From sequence record NC_002166.1: a stretch of 40,751 bases of DNA, one strand, 5' to 3'. Positions 4,028-20,130 of this stretch are shown here, one piece after another. The notes under the pieces are model-generated. The model ran no database searches. It was not told the DNA's origin and worked only from the letters and a program-made list of their open reading frames with translations. Both the position numbers and the translations under genes were made by a program. This DNA comes from Escherichia phage HK022. How positions within the stretch are numbered: the first letter of the stretch is position 1; each line of letters opens with the position of its first letter.

Positions 4028-5185
4028 ATGTCTGAACTCGCTCTCATTCAAAAAGCTATCGAAGAATCCCAGCAGAAAATGACCCAGCTTTTCGATGCGC
4101 AGAAAGCAGAAATCGAAAGCACAGGCCAGGTTTCCAAACAGTTGCAGTCCGACCTGATGAAAGTACAGGAAGAGCTGACCAAATCCGGCACTCGCCTCTT
4201 CGATCTGGAACAGAAACTGGCATCCGGCGCTGAGAATCCTGGTGAGAAGAAATCCTTCTCTGAACGGGCTGCTGAAGAGCTTATTAAGTCATGGGACGGT
4301 AAACAGGGCACCTTTGGCGCTAAAACGTTTAACAAGTCACTAGGCAGTGACGCTGATTCGGCTGGCTCACTGATCCAGCCTATGCAGATCCCAGGCATCA
4401 TCATGCCAGGCCTGCGCCGTCTTACCATTCGTGATCTGCTGGCTCAGGGCCGCACTTCCAGTAACGCTCTGGAATATGTGCGTGAAGAGGTGTTTACCAA
4501 TAACGCCGACGTGGTGGCAGAGAAAGCACTGAAGCCAGAATCGGATATCACCTTCAGCAAACAAACCGCGAACGTGAAGACCATCGCGCACTGGGTGCAG
4601 GCATCACGTCAGGTGATGGATGATGCGCCAATGCTTCAGTCCTACATTAACAACCGCCTCATGTACGGCCTGGCACTGAAGGAAGAGGGCCAGCTGCTGA
4701 ACGGCGACGGTACCGGGGATAACCTGGAAGGGCTGAACAAAGTGGCAACCGCCTATGACACCTCGTTGAATGCCACCGGCGACACCCGCGCTGACATTAT
4801 CGCTCACGCTATTTATCAGGTGACCGAGTCTGAGTTCAGCGCTTCCGGTATCGTCCTGAACCCGCGCGACTGGCACAACATCGCGTTGCTGAAAGACAAT
4901 GAAGGCCGCTATATCTTCGGTGGTCCTCAGGCATTCACCAGTAACATCATGTGGGGCTTGCCAGTGGTTCCGACTAAGGCGCAGGCCGCCGGCACCTTTA
5001 CCGTAGGCGGTTTCGATATGGCCTCACAGGTCTGGGATCGCATGGATGCCACCGTGGAAGTTAGCCGTGAAGACCGCGATAACTTCGTGAAAAACATGCT
5101 GACCATCCTGTGCGAAGAGCGTCTGGCGCTGGCACATTATCGCCCGACAGCAATCATCAAGGGCACCTTCTCTTCTGGCTCATGA
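4028..5185 (+). CDS. major capsid protein (HK97 fold)
   Basis: 385-aa ORF with long N-terminal coiled-coil-like delta region (residues ~1-100) followed by capsid domain; classic protease-capsid gene pair. Confidence 0.9.
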   Translation: MSELALIQKAIEESQQKMTQLFDAQKAEIESTGQVSKQLQSDLMKVQEELTKSGTRLFDLEQKLASGAENPGEKKSFSERAAEELIKSWDGKQGTFGAKTFNKSLGSDADSAGSLIQPMQIPGIIMPGLRRLTIRDLLAQGRTSSNALEYVREEVFTNNADVVAEKALKPESDITFSKQTANVKTIAHWVQASRQVMDDAPMLQSYINNRLMYGLALKEEGQLLNGDGTGDNLEGLNKVATAYDTSLNATGDTRADIIAHAIYQVTESEFSASGIVLNPRDWHNIALLKDNEGRYIFGGPQAFTSNIMWGLPVVPTKAQAAGTFTVGGFDMASQVWDRMDATVEVSREDRDNFVKNMLTILCEERLALAHYRPTAIIKGTFSSGS

Positions 5186-5192
5186 TGGAGGG

Positions 5193-5214
5193 GGCGGGGA
5201 AACCCGCCATTTTA
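5193..5214 (+). terminator. partial terminator/attenuator after the major capsid gene
   Basis: GGCGGG-gaaa-CCCGCC hairpin followed by ATTTTA. Confidence 0.4.
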
Positions 5215-5218
5215 ACGT

Positions 5219-5545
5219 ATGGCGATAGATGTTCTGGATGTAATTTCCCTCAGTCTGTTTAAGCAGCAGATTGAGTTTGAGGAAGACGACAGGGACGAGC
5301 TGATCACGCTGTACGCCCAGGCCGCTTTTGACTACTGCATGCGCTGGTGCGATGAACCAGCATGGAAGGTTGCGGCTGATATTCCTGCCGCCGTTAAGGG
5401 CGCCGTTCTGCTTGTCTTTGCTGACATGTTTGAACACCGGACGGCACAAAGCGAAGTGCAGCTTTATGAGAATGCAGCCGCCGAACGCATGATGTTCATT
5501 CATCGCAACTGGCGCGGAAAAGCCGAATCAGAGGAGGGCTCCTGA
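5219..5545 (+). CDS. head-tail connector protein (gp6-like)
   Basis: 108-aa ORF directly after capsid gene; position and size fit head-tail connector family. Confidence 0.65.
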   Translation: MAIDVLDVISLSLFKQQIEFEEDDRDELITLYAQAAFDYCMRWCDEPAWKVAADIPAAVKGAVLLVFADMFEHRTAQSEVQLYENAAAERMMFIHRNWRGKAESEEGS

Positions 5546-11989: not shown

Positions 11990-12700
11990 ATGCGTCAGAA
12001 AACCATCGATGCGATTATGGCGCATGCTGCAGCTGAATATCCTCGTGAGTGCTGCGGTGTGGTGGCACAGAAGAGCCGGGTAGAGAAATATTTTCCATGT
12101 CGTAACCTCGCTACCGAGCCGACAGAACATTTTCACCTGTCGCCAGAAGACTATGCAGCTGCTGAGGACTGGGGTACGGTGATCGCCATCGTTCACAGTC
12201 ACCCTGACGCCACAACGCAGCCGAGCGAACTGGATAAAGCGCAATGCGACGCAACGCTTTTACCCTGGCATATTGTGAGCTGGCCGGATGGGGATTTACG
12301 CACCATCCAGCCGCGCGGAGAACTGCCACTGCTGGAGCGTCCGTTTGTGCTTGGACACTTCGACTGCTGGGGGCTGGTAATGAGCTATTTCCGGCAAACG
12401 CATGGTATCGAGCTCCACGATTACCGGGTGGATTATCCCTGGTGGGAAAACGCCTATCCGGACAATTTTTATCAGGATTGCTGGTATGAATGCGGATTCA
12501 GGGAGTTTGACGGCCCGCCTCAGGAAGGGGACCTCGTCATCATGCAGGTGCAGGCCGATAAGTGGAATCATGCCGGGATTTTACTGGAGGGTAACATGCT
12601 GCTGCACCACCTGTACGGACATCTGAGCCAGCGCGTGCCGTATGGGGGCTACTGGCAGGAAAGGACGATGAAGATTCTTAGACATCAGAATTTTATTTAA
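11990..12700 (+). CDS. K: tail assembly protein K (JAMM/MPN + NlpC/P60 domains)
   Basis: 236 aa; JAMM motif HSHPDATTQPSELD; downstream Cys in GHFDCWGLV and His in NHAGILL consistent with NlpC/P60. Confidence 0.85.
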   Translation: MRQKTIDAIMAHAAAEYPRECCGVVAQKSRVEKYFPCRNLATEPTEHFHLSPEDYAAAEDWGTVIAIVHSHPDATTQPSELDKAQCDATLLPWHIVSWPDGDLRTIQPRGELPLLERPFVLGHFDCWGLVMSYFRQTHGIELHDYRVDYPWWENAYPDNFYQDCWYECGFREFDGPPQEGDLVIMQVQADKWNHAGILLEGNMLLHHLYGHLSQRVPYGGYWQERTMKILRHQNFI

Positions 12701-12747: not shown

Positions 12748-12972
12748 ATGTATACAGTTGGGTTTGGTTGGATCTTCGTCGGTATTTTTATTGGGTTAAT
12801 TCTCTGGTTTTTCATCAACCGCGCCAGCGTCAGAGCGAACAGGCAGGTTGAATTACTTGAGTCTATCGACCAGAAATTATCAAAAATAGTAGATCCAAAC
12901 TTCGAGGCAAATAACAAAGACCAGTCGAAAGAAAACTACCTTGAAGAAGCAAGGAAAAAAGCTGGGCTTTGA
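12748..12972 (+). CDS. small membrane protein (moron between K and I)
   Basis: 74 aa; AAGGAG RBS 6 nt upstream; one predicted TM helix (VGFGWIFVGIFIGLILWFFI) then charged tail; followed by its own terminator; lower GC than flanking tail genes. Confidence 0.5.
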   Translation: MYTVGFGWIFVGIFIGLILWFFINRASVRANRQVELLESIDQKLSKIVDPNFEANNKDQSKENYLEEARKKAGL

Positions 12973-13021: not shown

Positions 13022-13630
13022 ATGCAAGAGGTAATGACAAGAATTGAGCTAAGTGGCGTGCTAGCTAAGACATATGGAAGGGTTCATCACCGTCTGGTTC
13101 GCACTACTGCTGAAGCCATTAATGCACTCGCGAAAACCATCAATGGATTCGAGAAATTCTTAAACACAAGCAAAGCCCGAGGGCTGACGTATGCCGTTTA
13201 TAGAGATAAAAAGAATATTGGCGTTGATGATCTCGGCTTTCCCGTCACCGGCGAAGTGATCCGGATTGTCCCTGTAGTAATAGGGAGTAAAAAGGCTGGT
13301 CTTTTGCAGACGATCTTGGGGGCCGTGCTTATTACTGCTGCTGTGTTGACTGGACCCGGCGGTATTGGCGCTGCTTTCGCTGCTGGTGGATTGACGGGGT
13401 TTGCTGCTGCCACTGGTGCCTCGTTGGTCCTCGGTGGGGTTATTCAGCTGCTTTCACCGCAGCCATCAGGCATAGCCAGTAAACAAAGCGCAGATAACCG
13501 TGCATCGTATGCGTTTGGCGGGGTAACCAACACTGCAGCGCAAGGCTACCCGGTGCCTCTGCTTTATGGTAAGCGTCGAATCGGCGGAGCGATTATTTCT
13601 GCCGGAATTTATGTCGAAGATCAGCAGTGA
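13022..13630 (+). CDS. I: tail assembly protein I
   Basis: 202 aa; hydrophobic Gly/Ala-rich central segment; lambda gpI-like position between K and J. Confidence 0.8.
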   Translation: MQEVMTRIELSGVLAKTYGRVHHRLVRTTAEAINALAKTINGFEKFLNTSKARGLTYAVYRDKKNIGVDDLGFPVTGEVIRIVPVVIGSKKAGLLQTILGAVLITAAVLTGPGGIGAAFAAGGLTGFAAATGASLVLGGVIQLLSPQPSGIASKQSADNRASYAFGGVTNTAAQGYPVPLLYGKRRIGGAIISAGIYVEDQQ

Positions 13631-13714
13631 TACATAATGTGGGGAGCTAATATGAATAACGGGTACTTTGGTTTAAGTAGGGATAAAAAGCAGGTTGTGT
13701 TTTATGCGCCACTA

Positions 13715-13746
13715 TTCCAATTAAAGAAAGGCCGCATCTGCGGCCT
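13715..13746 (-). terminator. rho-independent terminator (minus strand)
   Basis: GGCCGC-agat-GCGGCC hairpin followed on the minus strand by TTTCTTTAATT; lies just 3' of the minus-strand ORF. Confidence 0.5.
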
Positions 13747-13750
13747 GGGG

Positions 13751-13972
13751 CTACTTATTCATGAATTGCTTCAGTTCAGTGGCAAGTTTTTCAAAAGGTG
13801 GATGGCTATACTGAGTAAGCTCTATAAGTAACTGGTTTTTATCTGAGTCAGGCAATCTGGCAAACAACAATCCAAATGCTAGCTTAAGAGCGGTAACCTC
13901 ATTTGCCACATCGGATACATCATTGCAATTAGTGGTTAGTTTTAGCCCGTCAATATGTCGAATCTGATTCAC
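13751..13972 (-). CDS. hypothetical protein (73 aa), opposite-strand moron between I and J
   Basis: GTG start at 13972 with AGGA 6 nt upstream; helical, mildly acidic protein; convergent with flanking tail genes. Confidence 0.45.
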   Translation of the reverse strand: MNQIRHIDGLKLTTNCNDVSDVANEVTALKLAFGLLFARLPDSDKNQLLIELTQYSHPPFEKLATELKQFMNK

Positions 13973-14101
13973 ATATATTCCTTATCCAGAGGTAATCAGC
14001 CATCCCTCCGTACCAGAGTGCGCCAGTGTCCCACCACTGGCGGGCTGAGTTATCACATTAACCAGGGTTTCCGATAAGCAACACCCTGATATTCAAACAG
14101 T

Positions 14102-14126
14102 AGCCACCTTCGGGTGGCTTTTTTTA
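14102..14126 (+). terminator. rho-independent terminator-like hairpin before J
   Basis: AGCCACC-ttcg-GGTGGCT plus T7; near-identical to the hairpin at 12987..13010. Confidence 0.55.
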
Positions 14127-14136
14127 TGGGCGCAAT

Positions 14137-17100
14137 ATGGCTACAGATAAAGTGTTAAAGGGCCGCAAGGGCGGCAGCTCCAGTTCCCGAACTCCTACCG
14201 AACAGCCTGATGATCTGCAATCTGTAGCGAAGGCAAAAATCCTCGTTGCGCTTGGGGAAGGTGAGTTTGCAGGGCAGCTCACCGGCAAAGATATCTACCT
14301 GGACGGAACAGCGCTGGAGAATGCTGACGGCTCCCAAAACTTCAGCGGGGTAACGTGGGAGTTTCGCGCGGGAACTCAGGCGCAAAAATATATTCAGGGT
14401 ATTCCCGGTACCGAAAACGAGATCAGCGTAGGAACTGAGGTATCAAGTGCCACAGCCTGGACGCGCACGTTTACCAATACGCAGCTTTCAGCAGTTCGCC
14501 TGCGTCTTAAATGGCCCTCGCTTTTCAAACAGGAGGACGACGGCGATCTGGTGGGTTACTCGGTCAATTATGCAATTGACCTGCAGACGGACGGCGGCGC
14601 ATGGCAGACGGTACTCAATACCAGCGTGACCGGAAAAACGACGTCTGGTTATGAGCGCAGCCATCGTATTGATTTACCGCAGGCTGGCAGCACTTGGACA
14701 ATCCGCCTGCGTAAGATTACCTCTGACGCCAACAGCGCGAAGATCGGCGACACGATGACGCTGCAGAGCTTCACTGAGGTGATTGACGCCAAGTTACGAT
14801 ATCCAAACACAGCGCTACTCTACATCGAATTCGATTCAAGTCAGTTTAACGGCTCTATCCCGCAGATCTCCTGCGAGCCCCGCGGCCGTGTTATCCGCGT
14901 TCCAGATACCTACGACCCTGAAACCCGCACTTATAGCGGTACATGGACCGGTGCGTTTAAGTGGGCATGGACGGATAACCCTGCGTGGATTTTTTACGAT
15001 CTGGTTGTTTCTGACCGGTTCGGCCTCGGGCACCGTTTGACCGCTGCGAATATTGATAAATGGACGCTTTATCAGGTTGCCCAGTATTGTGATCAGATGG
15101 TACCAGACGGCAAAGGGGGCAACGGTACCGAACCACGTTATACCTGCAACGTGTACATCCAGGACCGAAACGACGCTTATACAGTCCTGCGTGATTTTGC
15201 GGCCATATTCCGTGGCATGACGTACTGGGGAGGCGATCAGATCGTTGCTCTGGCCGATATGCCCCGAGATGTTGATTACAGCTACACGCGCGCCAACGTT
15301 GTTGGCGGTCGCTTCACCTATTCAAGCAGCACCACGAAAACCCGCTACACCACAGCGCTGGTTTCATGGTCAGACCCGGGTAACGCTTATGCCGACGCGA
15401 TGGAGCCGGTATTTGAGCAGGCGCTGGTAGCGCGATACGGCTTCAATCAGCTGGAAATGACAGCCATCGGCTGCACCAGGCAGTCAGAAGCGAACCGAAA
15501 GGGGCGCTGGGGCATTCTCACCAACAACAAGGATCGCGTTGTTTCGTTTGATGTCGGGCTGGACGGAAACATTCCGCAGCCTGGCTACATCATCGCCGTG
15601 GCAGACGAGCTGCTTTCCGGAAAGGTTATGGGCGGCCGCATCAGCGCCGTTAACGGTCGCGTTATCAAACTTGACCGCGTAGCTGATGCAGCACCAGGTG
15701 ATCGCCTTATTCTCAACCTTCCCTCCGGAGCGTCGCAGAGCAGGACCATTCAGGCCGTGAACGGGGAATCAGTCACAGTCACCACGGCATACAGTGAGAC
15801 GCCACAGGCCGAAGCTGTTTGGGTGGTTGAATCTGACGAGCTCTACGCGCAGCAGTATCGAGTTGTCAGCGTTTCCGATAACAATGATGGCACTTTCTCG
15901 ATTACCGGCGCATGGCACGACCCGGATAAATATGCCCGTATCGATACCGGAGCCATCATTGACCAACGGCCGGTGAGCGTGATCCCGCCGGGCAACCAGT
16001 CGCCGCCTGCGAATATCGTGATCAGCTCGTTTTCCGTGGTTCAGCAAAATATCAGCGTCGAAACAATGCGCGTGAGCTGGTACCAGGCGCAGAACGCTAT
16101 CGCCTATGAAGCACAATGGCGCCGCAACGACGGGAACTGGGTTAACGTGCCGCGCACCTCCACCACGTCATTCGACGTCCCGGGGATTTATGCCGGGCGC
16201 TACCTGGTGCGGGTGCGCGCAATCAATGCCGCAGAAATTTCATCCGGATGGGGCTATTCAGAAGAGAAAACGCTGACGGGTAAAGTGGGCAATCCACCGA
16301 AGCCGGTTGGCTTTATCGCCTCTGAAAACGTGGTGTTCGGTATCGAGCTGAACTGGGGATTCCCGGCGAATACCGACGACACGCTGAAGACGGAAATTCA
16401 GTACAGCCTGACCGGTACTGAAGACGATGCCATGCTGCTGGCCGATGTGCCTTACCCGCAGCGCAAATATCAGCAGATGGGCCTTAAGGCTGGGCAGATT
16501 TTCTGGTACCGCGCGCAGCTGGTTGACCGCAGCGGTAACGAGTCAGGTTATACCGGCTGGGTTCGTGGGCAGGCCAGTATCGATGTTTCTGACATCACAG
16601 ATGTGATCCTTGAAGACATCAAAGGGTCTGAGACGTTCAAAGACCTGATCGAGAACGCTGTGGACAGCAATGAAAAAATTGCTGGCATGGCTGACGACAT
16701 CAAACAGGCCAACGATGAACTTGAACTCCAGGCGCAGGAAATCGCAAAAAACGCGCAGGACATCGGGCAGGTTCAGACCAGCGTTAATGAGCTTTCTAGC
16801 ACGGTCGGTGATGTGTCGTCTTCTCTCTCAGATCTTGAGCAGACTGTTGCGACTGCTGATACCGCACTGGGCCAGCGAATCGACAGCATCAGCGTATCTA
16901 TGGACGGCATGACGGGCGGGGTGAAGAACTCTGCTATCGCAATTATCCAGAACGGGCTGGCACAAGTGGCTACGCGTAAATCGTTGTCAGCTTCGGTCGC
17001 AGGGAACAGTGCGCAGCTGGATCGTATTGATGAGGTAATCGTTAACGAGAAGGAGGCAACGGCGCGTTCTCTGCTGAGCCTGCAGACGGATGTCAACGGC

Positions 17101-17688
17101 AACAAGGCATCCATAAACAGCCTGAATCAGACGTTCTCCGACTATCAGCAGGCTACGGCCACGCAGATAAACGGCATAACGGCGACGGTGAACGGGAATA
17201 CCTCCGCCATCACCACTAACGCTCAGGCGATAGCCAACGTTAATGGCGACCTCAGCGCGATGTACAACATCAAGGTTGGCGTTTCCAGCAACGGTCAGTA
17301 TTACGCCGCGGGGATGGGTATCGGCGTGGAGAATACGCCATCCGGCATGCAGTCGCAGGTTATCTTCCTGGCTGATCGCTTCGCCGTCACCACGGCAGCC
17401 GGTAACAGCGTGGCTTTGCCGTTTGTGATCCAGAATGGACAGACATTCATCCGGGCCAGTTTCATCCAGGACGGCACTATCAGCAACGCAAAGATTGGTA
17501 ATTTTATCCAGTCGAACAATTATGTTGCTGGTTCTGCTGGCTGGAAGCTTGATAAAGGGGGGACGTTTGAGAACTACGGTTCGACTGCTGGTGAGGGAGC
17601 CATGAAACTGACAAATCAGACGATCAGCGTCAAAGATGGCAGTAATGTTCTTAGGGTGCAGGTTGGCCGATTAACGGGAGTATTCTGA
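14137..17688 (+). CDS. J: host specificity protein J (central tail fibre / tail tip)
   Basis: 1183-aa ORF after I; size and position match lambda gpJ; C-terminal part likely receptor-binding. Confidence 0.9.
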   Translation: MATDKVLKGRKGGSSSSRTPTEQPDDLQSVAKAKILVALGEGEFAGQLTGKDIYLDGTALENADGSQNFSGVTWEFRAGTQAQKYIQGIPGTENEISVGTEVSSATAWTRTFTNTQLSAVRLRLKWPSLFKQEDDGDLVGYSVNYAIDLQTDGGAWQTVLNTSVTGKTTSGYERSHRIDLPQAGSTWTIRLRKITSDANSAKIGDTMTLQSFTEVIDAKLRYPNTALLYIEFDSSQFNGSIPQISCEPRGRVIRVPDTYDPETRTYSGTWTGAFKWAWTDNPAWIFYDLVVSDRFGLGHRLTAANIDKWTLYQVAQYCDQMVPDGKGGNGTEPRYTCNVYIQDRNDAYTVLRDFAAIFRGMTYWGGDQIVALADMPRDVDYSYTRANVVGGRFTYSSSTTKTRYTTALVSWSDPGNAYADAMEPVFEQALVARYGFNQLEMTAIGCTRQSEANRKGRWGILTNNKDRVVSFDVGLDGNIPQPGYIIAVADELLSGKVMGGRISAVNGRVIKLDRVADAAPGDRLILNLPSGASQSRTIQAVNGESVTVTTAYSETPQAEAVWVVESDELYAQQYRVVSVSDNNDGTFSITGAWHDPDKYARIDTGAIIDQRPVSVIPPGNQSPPANIVISSFSVVQQNISVETMRVSWYQAQNAIAYEAQWRRNDGNWVNVPRTSTTSFDVPGIYAGRYLVRVRAINAAEISSGWGYSEEKTLTGKVGNPPKPVGFIASENVVFGIELNWGFPANTDDTLKTEIQYSLTGTEDDAMLLADVPYPQRKYQQMGLKAGQIFWYRAQLVDRSGNESGYTGWVRGQASIDVSDITDVILEDIKGSETFKDLIENAVDSNEKIAGMADDIKQANDELELQAQEIAKNAQDIGQVQTSVNELSSTVGDVSSSLSDLEQTVATADTALGQRIDSISVSMDGMTGGVKNSAIAIIQNGLAQVATRKSLSASVAGNSAQLDRIDEVIVNEKEATARSLLSLQTDVNGNKASINSLNQTFSDYQQATATQINGITATVNGNTSAITTNAQAIANVNGDLSAMYNIKVGVSSNGQYYAAGMGIGVENTPSGMQSQVIFLADRFAVTTAAGNSVALPFVIQNGQTFIRASFIQDGTISNAKIGNFIQSNNYVAGSAGWKLDKGGTFENYGSTAGEGAMKLTNQTISVKDGSNVLRVQVGRLTGVF

Positions 17689-17689
17689 A

Positions 17690-17992
17690 ATGGCTTATGG
17701 AATACAGACCTGGGATGCTTCAGGAAAACCCAACAACTATGGCATCAAACCCGTTTCCGTCGTTGGGCGAATACAGCTGGCTGCCGGGCAAACCTCAGGC
17801 AGCTGGTCTTTTACGGTGCCCTCAGGAATGAAAGTTGGTTTTGTTCTTTCACTTGATGAAGGAGGTAACAGCGTAGGGCGGCGCATTGTCGCGTCAGGGA
17901 GCACAATAACCGTAAGCGCTGCATCTTCTGTAGGTCTGGGTAATTATCCGGCCTCAAAGTGTGAAGTGGTCGTTTTCATGGAGAAAGCATAA
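17690..17992 (+). CDS. hypothetical protein (100 aa), tail accessory region
   Basis: ATG 2 nt after J stop; shares a G.xxWD(A/S)SGK motif with the next ORF. Confidence 0.5.
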   Translation: MAYGIQTWDASGKPNNYGIKPVSVVGRIQLAAGQTSGSWSFTVPSGMKVGFVLSLDEGGNSVGRRIVASGSTITVSAASSVGLGNYPASKCEVVVFMEKA

Positions 17993-18630
17993 TGGCCGAA
18001 TTTGGCGCGATGATATTAATGGACAACGGGAACCCATTTGTAACGCCCCAGTCAACGCCTTTTTGTCTTTACGGCAAGTACACTTTCAACTCCTCTGCTA
18101 ATGGCAGTTCGCAGCAGGTTGCTCAGAATATTGCATTAAATGCTGACTACCCTGTGATGGTATTTATCAGGACCACAAATACCGCCCAGCCCACGCCAGT
18201 AATATCTTACCGGAACGGCGGAAATATATATGTCGCGGGGGTTAATCCCTATAACCAGAGCTTCACGTTAACCGCATATATTTTTGCCATATTTCCCCAG
18301 ACGTTACCGAAATGGGGGATGGCCATCTGGGATTCGAGCGGGAAGCTGGTACTCACTAATGAGTCCCGCGTGCTGTCAGACTTGCAGACAATCGGAACGC
18401 CTGGAGCAAACGGCGGGATTAACATTGACCAGACGCTTGATGGTTCATGGGCAGTGGCTCCATCAAGGCTGGGGCAAGTGAACAGAAACGACGCTTACTC
18501 ATCTTGTAGGTATTCAGGCACAAGTACAAGAATAAACGCCGGTACAGCCGCAAATACACCTGGCGGTGCTGGAGGGGTGATAAATAATGGAATTATCCTG
18601 ACAGCAATTAAAACAGACGCCTATGACTGA
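17992..18630 (+). CDS. hypothetical protein (212 aa), tail accessory region
   Basis: ATG overlaps upstream stop (TAATG); GGAGA RBS; Gly/Asn/Thr-rich, fibre-like composition. Confidence 0.5.
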   Translation: MAEFGAMILMDNGNPFVTPQSTPFCLYGKYTFNSSANGSSQQVAQNIALNADYPVMVFIRTTNTAQPTPVISYRNGGNIYVAGVNPYNQSFTLTAYIFAIFPQTLPKWGMAIWDSSGKLVLTNESRVLSDLQTIGTPGANGGINIDQTLDGSWAVAPSRLGQVNRNDAYSSCRYSGTSTRINAGTAANTPGGAGGVINNGIILTAIKTDAYD

Positions 18631-18737: not shown

Positions 18738-18971
18738 ATGAAAAGGCTAATTATCTGCATAGCGGGCGCTTTAATGCTGTCTGGTTGCGCTGGTGTACTT
18801 GAGAAACAGAAACCGATTTGCAGCGGCACGGCATATATGGGTGGCCATGAGAATACCGTTATGATTTACGCCGTTCGAAAGCAAAACAACCAGACGCAAT
18901 ACCGGGCCGGATATCCCTTTAACTGGCGCTGGGTAAGTGCGAACACATTCACAAGCACGACATGTAAATAA
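18738..18971 (+). CDS. cor: small lipoprotein, Cor-like (candidate superinfection exclusion)
   Basis: 77 aa; signal peptide with lipobox LSGC (Cys17); AT-rich upstream region; followed by a terminator; same position as cor in phi80/N15-type phages. Confidence 0.6.
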   Translation: MKRLIICIAGALMLSGCAGVLEKQKPICSGTAYMGGHENTVMIYAVRKQNNQTQYRAGYPFNWRWVSANTFTSTTCK

Positions 18972-18991
18972 CTCATGATTTTCAATGCAAA

Positions 18992-19016
18992 CCTCGCCTC
19001 GGCGGGGTTTTTTATT
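18992..19016 (+). terminator. rho-independent terminator
   Basis: CCTCGCC-tc-GGCGGGG hairpin plus T6. Confidence 0.6.
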
Positions 19017-19029
19017 GCCTGGAGAAAAT

Positions 19030-20130
19030 ATGCTTTATAACACTGGAACCATCGCCATTAACGGAAACAGCGCCACCGGCACGGGCACGAACTGGACGGC
19101 ACCCGCCAGCCAGGTTCGCGCTGGCCAGACGATTATCGTGATGTCTAACCCGGTGCAGCTGTTTCAGATTTCATCCGTGAACAGCGCCACGTCAATGACG
19201 GTTACTCCAGCTGCTTCCCCGGCGCTGAGCGGCCAGAAGTATGGAATTCTTGTGTCGGACATTATCTCGGTTGATGGGCTGGCACAGGCCATGTCACAGC
19301 TCATCAAAGAGTACGACGAGAATATTGGCGCGTGGGAGACCTTCGCCAGCACCTCAGCAAACCAGCTGGTCACTGTGACAATCAACGGCACCAGCCTCAG
19401 CATTCCTGCCATCGGTGGTCTCGCCCGGAAAGGGGCAAATAGCGATATCACAGAGCTGAAAGGGCTAAGTACAGCATTGAGTGTTGCTCAGGGTGGGACA
19501 GGTGGCAAAAACGCTACGGACGCAGCAAATAATATTGGTGTTGGGCCTGCCAGTTATCCATTATTTTCTGGAGCGACCGTTTCGACAACAGGCTATGCAA
19601 TTCTCGGAGCGCAAAATACTTCGCGAGAAGCAACGGATGTTGGGGCACGCGTTCAGCTTGAAGCGTCTATTGCTGCAAACGCTCCCGCAGTAATCATACA
19701 AAGGAATAATCAGAATAATCAGACAGGACAAATACGCTCAGTACTGCCATCAACATCTGGCACACTTGCTGTGCAGGGAACATCAGGAAGAGACTATAAA
19801 AAGAACATTTCTCCTGCGAATCCAGAAGAGGCTTTAGGAAGAATACTTGCGCTTGAGCTTGTCAATTTTGTTTACAAGGATGATGAGAAGGATCGCCAGA
19901 GATTTGGGATTATTGCGGAAGACGCAGAAGTTATTGCTCCACAATATATTAAACACAACCAAGAACCGATTCCAGGAACGGAGGTTTTCAATGAAGATGG
20001 ACACAAGATAGGAGAGGAGTTCCGTGATCGCCCATCAGTAGACAATAATCCTATTGTGATGGACCTGATTGGGTGTATTCATGGGTTGCAAAGACAAATT
20101 ACCGATCTTAGACAGGAGCTTGTTGACTAA
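19030..20130 (+). CDS. tail fibre protein with C-terminal intramolecular chaperone-like domain
   Basis: 366 aa from ATG 19030 (GGAGAA RBS); the track's upstream start at 18985 would read through the terminator; C-terminal segment RFGIIAEDAEVIAPQYI resembles the self-cleaving chaperone domain of tail fibres and tailspikes. Confidence 0.7.
   Translation: MLYNTGTIAINGNSATGTGTNWTAPASQVRAGQTIIVMSNPVQLFQISSVNSATSMTVTPAASPALSGQKYGILVSDIISVDGLAQAMSQLIKEYDENIGAWETFASTSANQLVTVTINGTSLSIPAIGGLARKGANSDITELKGLSTALSVAQGGTGGKNATDAANNIGVGPASYPLFSGATVSTTGYAILGAQNTSREATDVGARVQLEASIAANAPAVIIQRNNQNNQTGQIRSVLPSTSGTLAVQGTSGRDYKKNISPANPEEALGRILALELVNFVYKDDEKDRQRFGIIAEDAEVIAPQYIKHNQEPIPGTEVFNEDGHKIGEEFRDRPSVDNNPIVMDLIGCIHGLQRQITDLRQELVD

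Follow-up and report, generated by a model that had tools for sequence, protein, structure and literature searches.

A two-gene cassette behind J in phage HK022 as a probable FhuA-binding complex of the tail tip

Phages T1, phi80 and HK022 are the classical FhuA phages, and the protein that touches FhuA is still without experimental demonstration. Current papers disagree on this point, naming the central tail fibre protein J as the binder, assigning the role to proteins of the locus behind J, or describing the latter as membrane proteins that aid superinfection exclusion. What, then, do the two small genes directly downstream of J encode? In the present study, this question was addressed for Escherichia phage HK022 (NC_002166.1), analysed as one window of 40,751 nt, in which a short protein of 100 amino acids (aa) is encoded at 17690..17992 and a long protein of 212 aa at 17992..18630, both on the plus strand. 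We conclude that this pair is probably a virion-borne, two-chain receptor-binding complex, carried on the distal tip of the trimeric J and conferring FhuA specificity. Within this complex, the long protein might bind the receptor, with the short protein serving as adaptor or as J-proximal module, a division of labour that is less certain than the overall reading. Loci of this kind have been described before, and our reading agrees with published proposals. The new elements are a fold link to the receptor-binding protein of phage Oekolampad, the interpretation of the pair as three modules encoded by split genes, the finding that a short motif is a signature common to FhuA-, YncD- and, more weakly, LptD-type cassettes, and several arguments against the membrane and exclusion annotation.

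First, the pair is tightly associated with J. The J-like central tail fibre or tail-tip protein (1183 aa; 14137..17688, plus strand, from the list of open reading frames (ORFs), with a TGA stop at 17686-17688) corresponds to HK022 gp24, which is named as the homologue of T1 gp33 in the T1 record, and near-identical regions of mEp235 and HK106 carry the annotation central tail fibre J. The tail-end region as a whole is 98.8-100% identical to those of mEp235, HK633, HK106 and HK75. The ATG of the short gene lies 1 base after the J stop, and the short stop and the long start share the sequence TAATG (17990-17994), confirming the boundaries and the coupling of both ORFs given in the preliminary description. 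Shine-Dalgarno-like sequences (GGGAG/GGAG; 17676-17680 and 17980-17983) are located 8-9 nt 5' of both starts. From this arrangement, we infer late expression of both genes together with J, at the distal end of its operon, and the tight or overlapping junctions would favour roughly equal amounts of both proteins. The short protein (PHROG 557, covering residues 1-99 of 100, E 2.4e-36) and the long protein (PHROG 425, residues 1-212, E 9.7e-75) are the homologues of T1 gp32 and gp31, respectively, and NP_597886 and NP_597887 of HK022 are listed as such in the T1 record; T1 gp31 is 50% identical to the long protein and gp32 is 54-56% identical to the short protein, and gp22 of phi80 is 100% identical to the short protein of HK022. 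In T1, phi80, Dhillonvirus and the Klebsiella weberviruses, a J homologue always precedes the PHROG 557/425 pair. In HK022-like phages, T1, PaulSarasin, PeterMerian, LeonhardEuler and the Klebsiella phages Sushi and Roth30, the pair lies directly 3' of this homologue, co-oriented and with the short gene preceding the long one, and the junctions within the pair measure 0-5 nt or overlap in every locus opened.

Second, the pair tracks FhuA dependence across unrelated phage families. Using tblastn, an almost perfect co-occurrence was observed, the short protein being found in 344 phage records and the long protein in 348, with identical main-host counts for both (176 Escherichia, 111 Klebsiella, 22 'Enterobacteria', 8 Shigella and 8 'Campylobacter'). 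The cassette has been described in T1, HK022, N15, ES18 and phi80, all FhuA-dependent (PMC13164509); for HK022, this dependence is stated in that paper with reference to Wietzorrek 2006. In the BASEL collection, the FhuA-using Drexlerviridae and Dhillonvirus phages in which the cassette was found account for 10/10 (PMC13164509). The FhuA-type loci of T1, phi80 and these BASEL phages share the order J, short, long, cor (the gene of the FhuA-exclusion lipoprotein, which the pair adjoins in coliphages) and the same FhuA association, and the HK022 copy differs from them by its setting only, i.e. a temperate lambdoid genome with a co-oriented cor followed by a side-fibre gene and an integrase gene. 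A match between the loci behind gpJ and receptor specificity was reported by Maffei et al. 2021 (PMC8594841), who proposed dedicated receptor-binding and cognate exclusion proteins, 'pending experimental validation'. A 2026 preprint confirmed this correlation and presented supportive AlphaFold3 models, describing the FhuA, BtuB, LptD and YncD proteins as 'four unrelated protein families' with 'accessory proteins' (bioRxiv 10.64898/2026.04.02.716166). In Klebsiella weberviruses, two proteins are missing from the one FhuA-insensitive phage, and their predicted complexes with FhuA reached interface predicted template modelling scores (ipTM) of 0.75 for one and 0.45 for the other (PMC12629751). 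The layout of the Roth30 locus makes it very probable that these proteins, gp53 and gp54, are homologous to the long and the short protein. The 8 'Campylobacter' records, labelled as phages of Campylobacter jejuni (e.g. MG065641.1, 'Campylobacter phage A14a'), resemble T1-like coliphages in carrying both the pair and cor, and they are probably mislabelled hosts or contaminating coliphages.

Third, the preliminary description had noted a WD(A/S)SGK motif in both proteins, and this observation was borne out at both positions. Copy 1, GIQTWDASGK, occupies aa 4-13 of the short protein (17699..17728, plus strand), and copy 2, WGMAIWDSSGK, occupies aa 108-118 of the long protein (18313..18345, plus strand), where it forms the hairpin opening the second module. 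A third, degenerate copy, FGAMILMDNGNP, is located at aa 4-15 of the long protein (18001..18036, plus strand), and its pattern, (Y/F)G-A-M-I-x-x-x-N-G-N-P, is also conserved in the family, with N12, G13, N14 and P15 nearly invariant. The comparison of the two single sequences gave modest support (BLASTP E 0.018 across 11 residues), and the observed ungapped score was reached in 55/2000 shuffles. From the relatives collected (157 of the short and 106 of the long protein), family profiles were aligned with each other using hhalign, and the support was then clear, with an E-value of 5.7e-5. W8, D9 and G12 are invariant or nearly so in 120 sequences of the short family, as are W113, D114 and G117 in 89 sequences of the long family. 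The strict pattern G[ILMFV].[ATIVLS][WF]D..G occurs only at motif copies 1 and 2 in the 81,498 six-frame residues of the window, and PHROG 2427 matches both proteins weakly and in the same register. The shared motif marks the start of a repeated module.

Fourth, the predicted fold links the long protein to a solved receptor binder. AlphaFold2 models were obtained with the family alignments as input. The model of the long protein (predicted local distance difference test score (pLDDT) 88, predicted template modelling score (pTM) 0.84) comprises two beta-sandwich modules at residues ~23-100 and ~125-207, each preceded by a two-strand, motif-bearing hairpin; the hairpin of motif copy 2 comprises strands 111-113 and 119-122, and the N-terminal hairpin (strands 7-9 and 15-17) is of low model confidence. 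The short protein (pLDDT 83) is modelled as one sandwich, residues 22-100, and its N-terminal 20 residues, which include the motif, are poorly defined in the isolated model. Poor definition of a hairpin in an isolated model might reflect the absence of its partner. Thus, with high confidence in the prediction, the long protein would consist of two sandwich modules and the short protein of one, each opening with a hairpin of the form (Y/W)G-h-x-h-(W/F)-D-x-x-G, in which h is a hydrophobic residue. The long-protein model has the fold of chain C of 9RPT, which was confirmed by sequence to be the homologue of Rtp44 of the LptD-type phage Rtp, namely the receptor-binding protein of Oekolampad; for Oekolampad/Rtp44, binding to the receptor LptD has been proven structurally (PDB 9RPT; PMC12685063). 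For the short protein, Foldseek gave no match at E <= 0.001 in BFVD, and the weaker matches were small uncharacterised phage proteins and the end domains of fibres or tailspikes. PDB sequence searches with single sequences and family profiles returned nothing meaningful for either protein. Searches of Pfam and NCBIfam assigned neither protein to a family, even at E 10, with a sub-threshold Tailspike_C signal on the short protein (E 0.015) as the sole trace, and no match to the Lom, Tfa or fibre-assembly families was observed. The long protein had also been described as rich in Gly, Asn and Thr in the manner of fibre proteins; the enrichment is only mild (G 10.4, N 9.4 and T 9.4%), and the fibre-like character did not hold, given the compact beta-sandwich modules of the models and the weak bias in composition.

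The two families differ in their conservation. The short family is uniformly conserved, with a mean column identity of 82%. In the long family, conservation is highest at residues 11-30 and 91-160, where the hairpins, including that of motif copy 2, and the junction between the modules are located, and residues 31-90 and 161-200 are the most variable. The variable C-terminal part at aa 161-200 (18472..18591, plus strand) contains the highest-entropy block of the alignment (aa 181-190) and provides candidate receptor-contacting loops. Many tblastn matches to the long protein span just residues 1-161/163, and the nucleotide match to phi80 ends at 80% of the region.

The J protein itself co-varies with the pair. 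The extreme C-terminal tip of J, its last ~45 aa (17551..17688, plus strand), is the proposed docking site for the pair. In the alignment, the tip common to HK022, T1, PaulSarasin and Sushi reads ...GTFENYGS..GEGAMK.TN.TISV.D....LRVQ.GRLTG.(F/W), and J of PeterMerian has the same tip type as HK022. The tips of Rtp (LptD type) and IsaakIselin (YncD type) differ from it, so that the last ~45 residues change with the cassette type and are of one type in all pair carriers compared; an association of the gpJ tip with specificity was also reported in bioRxiv 10.64898/2026.04.02.716166. Over the last 80 alignment columns, the J proteins of HK022 and T1 are 66-80% identical, compared with 10-50% further upstream, and the G+C content (GC) falls from ~0.55 to ~0.48 near position 17450, within distal J. 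These results suggest that distal J contains a recombination boundary and that the sequence beyond it moves together with the pair, and the identity pattern and the GC steps together fit a mobile unit of J tip and pair, with cor as a separate moron. An alternative is that the J tip itself binds FhuA and that the pair are accessory tip components involved in tip stability, binding to lipopolysaccharide, or the TonB and energy dependence of irreversible adsorption. Consistent with this alternative, the J tip also changes with the receptor type; one paper assigns receptor binding in T1 and phi80 to J itself (PMC10373560), and the specificity of TolC-, LamB- and NupG-targeting relatives has been assigned to J (PMC8594841; bioRxiv 10.64898/2026.04.02.716166). 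The high conservation of the short protein would also be expected of a structural accessory. Against this view, the long protein is predicted to have the fold of an experimentally shown receptor binder encoded at the equivalent locus (PMC12685063), and the published AlphaFold complexes favour the proteins of this locus for FhuA (PMC12629751; bioRxiv 10.64898/2026.04.02.716166). Moreover, the FhuA-type tip comprises just ~45 residues and is 66-80% conserved between HK022 and T1, and a tip so short and conserved looks like a docking surface and not like one adapting to a receptor. We therefore regard J as the binder of FhuA as unlikely, although it is the strongest of the alternatives, followed by the assembly factors and the exclusion-related envelope proteins considered below. 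The tail-tip or receptor-binding role, which the preliminary description had suggested, is the best supported, as the pair is fixed after J and tracks FhuA dependence and the J tip co-varies with it.

A second alternative arises from the neighbouring cor gene (18738..18971, plus strand; NCBIfam lamb_exclu_cor, E 4e-41; PHROG 1119), which encodes a FhuA-specific superinfection-exclusion lipoprotein. In the KanT1 paper (2026), no Foldseek or HHpred hits were obtained for the pair, and both proteins were suggested to be exclusion-related membrane proteins (PMC13164509). According to this proposal of an 'extended cor cassette', which is in line with the RefSeq and PHROG names, the pair would be membrane or outer-membrane proteins aiding Cor in superinfection exclusion; they adjoin cor and share its association with FhuA-dependent phages (PMC13164509). 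Cor carries a lipoprotein signal, MKRLIICIAGALMLSGC, and reaches a 19-residue Kyte-Doolittle hydropathy of 2.09, whereas the maximum is 1.27 for the short and 0.82 for the long protein, and the N-termini of the short and long proteins (MAYGIQTWDASG and MAEFGAMILMDN) show no hydrophobic core, signal peptide, lipobox or membrane segment. Because neither protein has an export signal or hydrophobic segment, the sequences lend no support to the database labels 'outer membrane' and 'membrane associated', and the periplasm and the outer membrane would be out of reach of the pair by the usual routes. Among the Klebsiella phage records, the pair is present in 111 and cor in 2, so that the pair is not obligately associated with cor; in Sushi and Roth30, a terminator or a convergent fibre gene lies directly 3' of the pair, with nothing between. 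The orientation of cor varies (co-oriented in HK022, inverted in the T1-like loci opened, inverted in Dhillonvirus as judged by the match strand, or absent), while the pair stays fixed to J. The GC of the pair (0.47-0.51) is unlike that of cor (0.40-0.43), and the predicted fold is that of a receptor-binding protein. An exclusion role for the pair is therefore very improbable. The cor gene itself looks like a self-contained moron, with its low GC, a 107-nt AT-rich gap upstream and a terminator-like hairpin directly 3' (18989..19010, plus strand); a promoter scan upstream of cor revealed no sigma-70-like site at the threshold of the tool.

Herein, we propose the following sequence of events for the split receptor-binding complex. 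After late synthesis, the N-terminal hairpin of the short protein would dock on the cassette-specific J tip, and the N-terminal hairpin of the long protein would pack on the short protein. The variable C-terminal module of the long protein might then contact extracellular FhuA and trigger infection, in line with the published AlphaFold complex predictions. Thereafter, Cor, a lipoprotein of the periplasm produced from its own moron, blocks FhuA against superinfection, as is established for Cor in the literature.

The pair can be compared with the LptD-type proteins. Rtp44 is a protein of 311 aa encoded directly after J, beside the exclusion lipoprotein Rtp45, and the pair of HK022 adds up to 100+212 = 312 aa. 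Rtp44 and the Oekolampad protein are thus single chains of ~310 aa that recognise LptDE, whereas HK022 has two chains of 100 and 212 aa; the sequences are not significantly similar, and the J tip of Rtp differs. By eye, three motif-led segments with a weaker motif are discernible in Rtp44, QGIYIDLNDGRKP at position 3 (core QGIYIDLNDG), QGIYVADSTDF at 115 and PGINIFNSNNQ at 208, and this three-module reading derives from the Rtp44 sequence only. Motif-like segments are also found in the Oekolampad protein (GAGILIDYNDGRP, NAGLLVANSTDF and GTGITMTNNQNQ). The three modules of the pair would together correspond to the single-chain protein of ~311 aa of the LptD phages, as represented by Rtp44 and Oekolampad; in other words, the pair may be a two-chain version of a three-module adhesin, with the short protein as module 1 and the long protein as modules 2-3. 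In module-by-module hhalign comparisons of the six modules, only the short protein and the second module of the long protein matched significantly; the other module pairs gave P 0.007-0.4, with in-register alignments that were partly forced by the settings.

A similar split layout is present in a YncD-type phage. IsaakIselin (Bas10, MZ501077) carries at 4099..5473 (minus strand) an inverted cassette encoding proteins of 101, 217 and 110 aa, the two larger of which carry a WDASG/FDASG motif. The 101-aa protein opens with the motif (PGLQAWDASGNLV / GLQAWDASGNLV), and the 217-aa protein contains SGFEVRNNAGVVLI at its N-terminus (SGFEVRNNAG) and GYLDVFDASGNLVW / SGYLDVFDASGNLVW in its middle. BLAST and HMMER revealed no similarity between the HK022 pair and this cassette; hhalign of the short-family profile against the 101-aa protein gave an E-value of 1.9e-4 over 66 columns, and a second hhalign comparison on the cassette gave 4.8e-4. 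IsaakIselin thus shares the split 1+2-module layout and the motif with HK022 and differs in its receptor, YncD, in the inversion of the whole cassette, in its J tip and in its third protein, which is no Cor homologue. This 110-aa third protein has a signal-like N-terminus, MKKIMLAMALVAPLNAMA.

As a more tentative extension, at least the FhuA, YncD and LptD cassettes might descend from one three-module beta-sandwich adhesin, each module of which would open with the (Y/W)G-h-x-h-(W/F)-D-x-x-G hairpin, and the first module might have split off in the FhuA and YncD types. The resulting heterodimer might be pseudo-threefold, with its hairpins matching the J trimer and with energised FhuA needed for its action. 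If three hairpins or modules matched three J chains, the symmetry problem of a trimeric fibre facing a monomeric receptor would be solved. The Oekolampad protein enters the open LptD barrel, and by analogy the long protein may need energised (TonB-dependent) FhuA. Adsorption of T1 and phi80 classically requires TonB, and a need for energised FhuA would explain this requirement.

Two further systems allow comparison. The pb5 protein of phage T5 has a length of 640 aa. T5 follows the same logic with pb5 and Llp, in which a FhuA-binding protein is held non-covalently on a trimeric central fibre and accompanied by a FhuA-blocking periplasmic lipoprotein (PMC9586334). In contrast to the HK022 pair beside J, pb5 is a single protein encoded elsewhere in the T5 genome, and it was absent from the results of the sequence and fold searches with the pair. 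In lambda, the neighbourhood is the same, i.e. the end of the tail operon after J, but J binds LamB by its own C-terminal domain, without such a pair. Lambda Lom is a signal-peptide-bearing outer-membrane barrel, unlike either protein of the pair, and an Stf-like gene is also present in HK022.

Several observations weigh against the proposal that the pair is a split receptor-binding complex related to the LptD-type proteins. No direct evidence for virion location or FhuA binding was found for any member of this cassette type. The cryo-electron microscopy structure of T1 is unresolved past J residue 820 and showed no extra protein (PMC11945409), and gel-band proteomics of T1-like phages, covering major gel bands only or preparations contaminated with non-structural proteins, did not report the pair (PMC3496638, PMC4070988). 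The assignment of receptor binding to J in T1 and phi80, mentioned above, points the same way. In addition, the sequence evidence for a split three-module protein is weak: Pfam DUF6453 (PF20051) matches neither protein even at E 10, with Rtp44 as a control at E 1.4e-113, and an hhalign comparison between the long and Rtp44 families gave only E 0.003-0.006 in two alternative registers. The HMMER profile of the long family, run against 1.84 billion representative proteins, returned 128 relatives, nearly all of them two-module proteins of 205-240 aa, and connected the long family neither to DUF6453 nor to the short family. The Rtp receptor-binding gene is inverted relative to J, so that gene orientation is not a universal rule. 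A natural fusion of short and long was not found among the 128 family representatives. Two HMMER hits of unusual length were rejected: a protein of 1794 aa (P0389) is repetitive and a chance match as a relative, and a protein of 337 aa (P0303) is a chimera with a J fragment, carrying the J sequence GKVGNPPKPVGF..., and not a natural fusion. In a protein of 188 aa (P0106), named TipJ family protein, a piece of J is likewise linked to a portion of the long protein. Both P0303 and P0106 look like assembly or frameshift chimeras, and several short hits look like frameshifted fragments.

The silence of the virion data would also be expected if the pair assisted the assembly or folding of the J tip or of the side tail fibre, acting in the cell and absent from the virion (PMC11945409, PMC4070988, PMC3496638). 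Both are small cytoplasmic proteins without export signal, encoded among tail-fibre genes. Phage fibre chaperones are often encoded directly downstream of their client gene, which also speaks for this alternative. However, no match to known fibre-assembly families was obtained in Pfam or NCBIfam, and the side-fibre gene of T1 is encoded on the opposite strand at a distance of ~3 kb, with the pair remaining beside J. In HK022, the side fibre has its own S74 intramolecular chaperone. The predicted fold matches an adhesin module and not a chaperone, and the variable C-terminal loops of the long protein suggest outward-facing selection. An assembly role is therefore improbable.

With respect to the remainder of the region, the gene order is J, short, long, the 107-nt gap, cor, hairpin, side tail fibre and an integrase gene on the opposite strand. 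The side tail fibre gene (~19030..20130, plus strand; Pfam Peptidase_S74, E 1e-9; PHROG 1980/1591) encodes the C-terminal S74 intramolecular chaperone. Its listed ORF begins at 18985 and overlaps the terminator hairpin 3' of cor; because family matches begin only at residues 15-16, the true start is probably the ATG at 19030 (MLYNTGTIAING...). The preliminary description had considered that the two genes replace the lom/stf region of lambda. The position of lom is taken by the pair together with the cor moron, and stf is not replaced, since the side-tail-fibre gene with its S74 domain is retained. Two further small ORFs were observed upstream. A 74-aa ORF at 12748..12972 (plus strand), between the K-like gene (11990..12700) and the gene of the tail assembly protein I (13022..13630), matches PHROG 5031 (unknown function; E 7e-41) and is hydrophobic in its N-terminal part (MYTVGFGWIFVGIFIGLILWFFI...); it may be a moron within the tail operon. 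The gap of ~500 nt between I and J (13631..14136) is unusual and holds a 73-aa ORF at 13751..13972 (minus strand) that matches PHROG 6806 (unknown function; E 4e-8); it looks like another insertion in the tail operon.

Taken together, the predicted fold class of a solved receptor binder, the lack of export signals and the occurrence of the pair without cor narrow the options to a testable subunit model. The results also provide a basis for correcting the misleading 'outer membrane protein' annotation, which is carried by many of ~340 phage records in RefSeq copies and PHROG-based names. If the split three-module picture is true, the FhuA, YncD and LptD cassettes would represent a common blueprint for retargeting small siphoviruses between these receptors.

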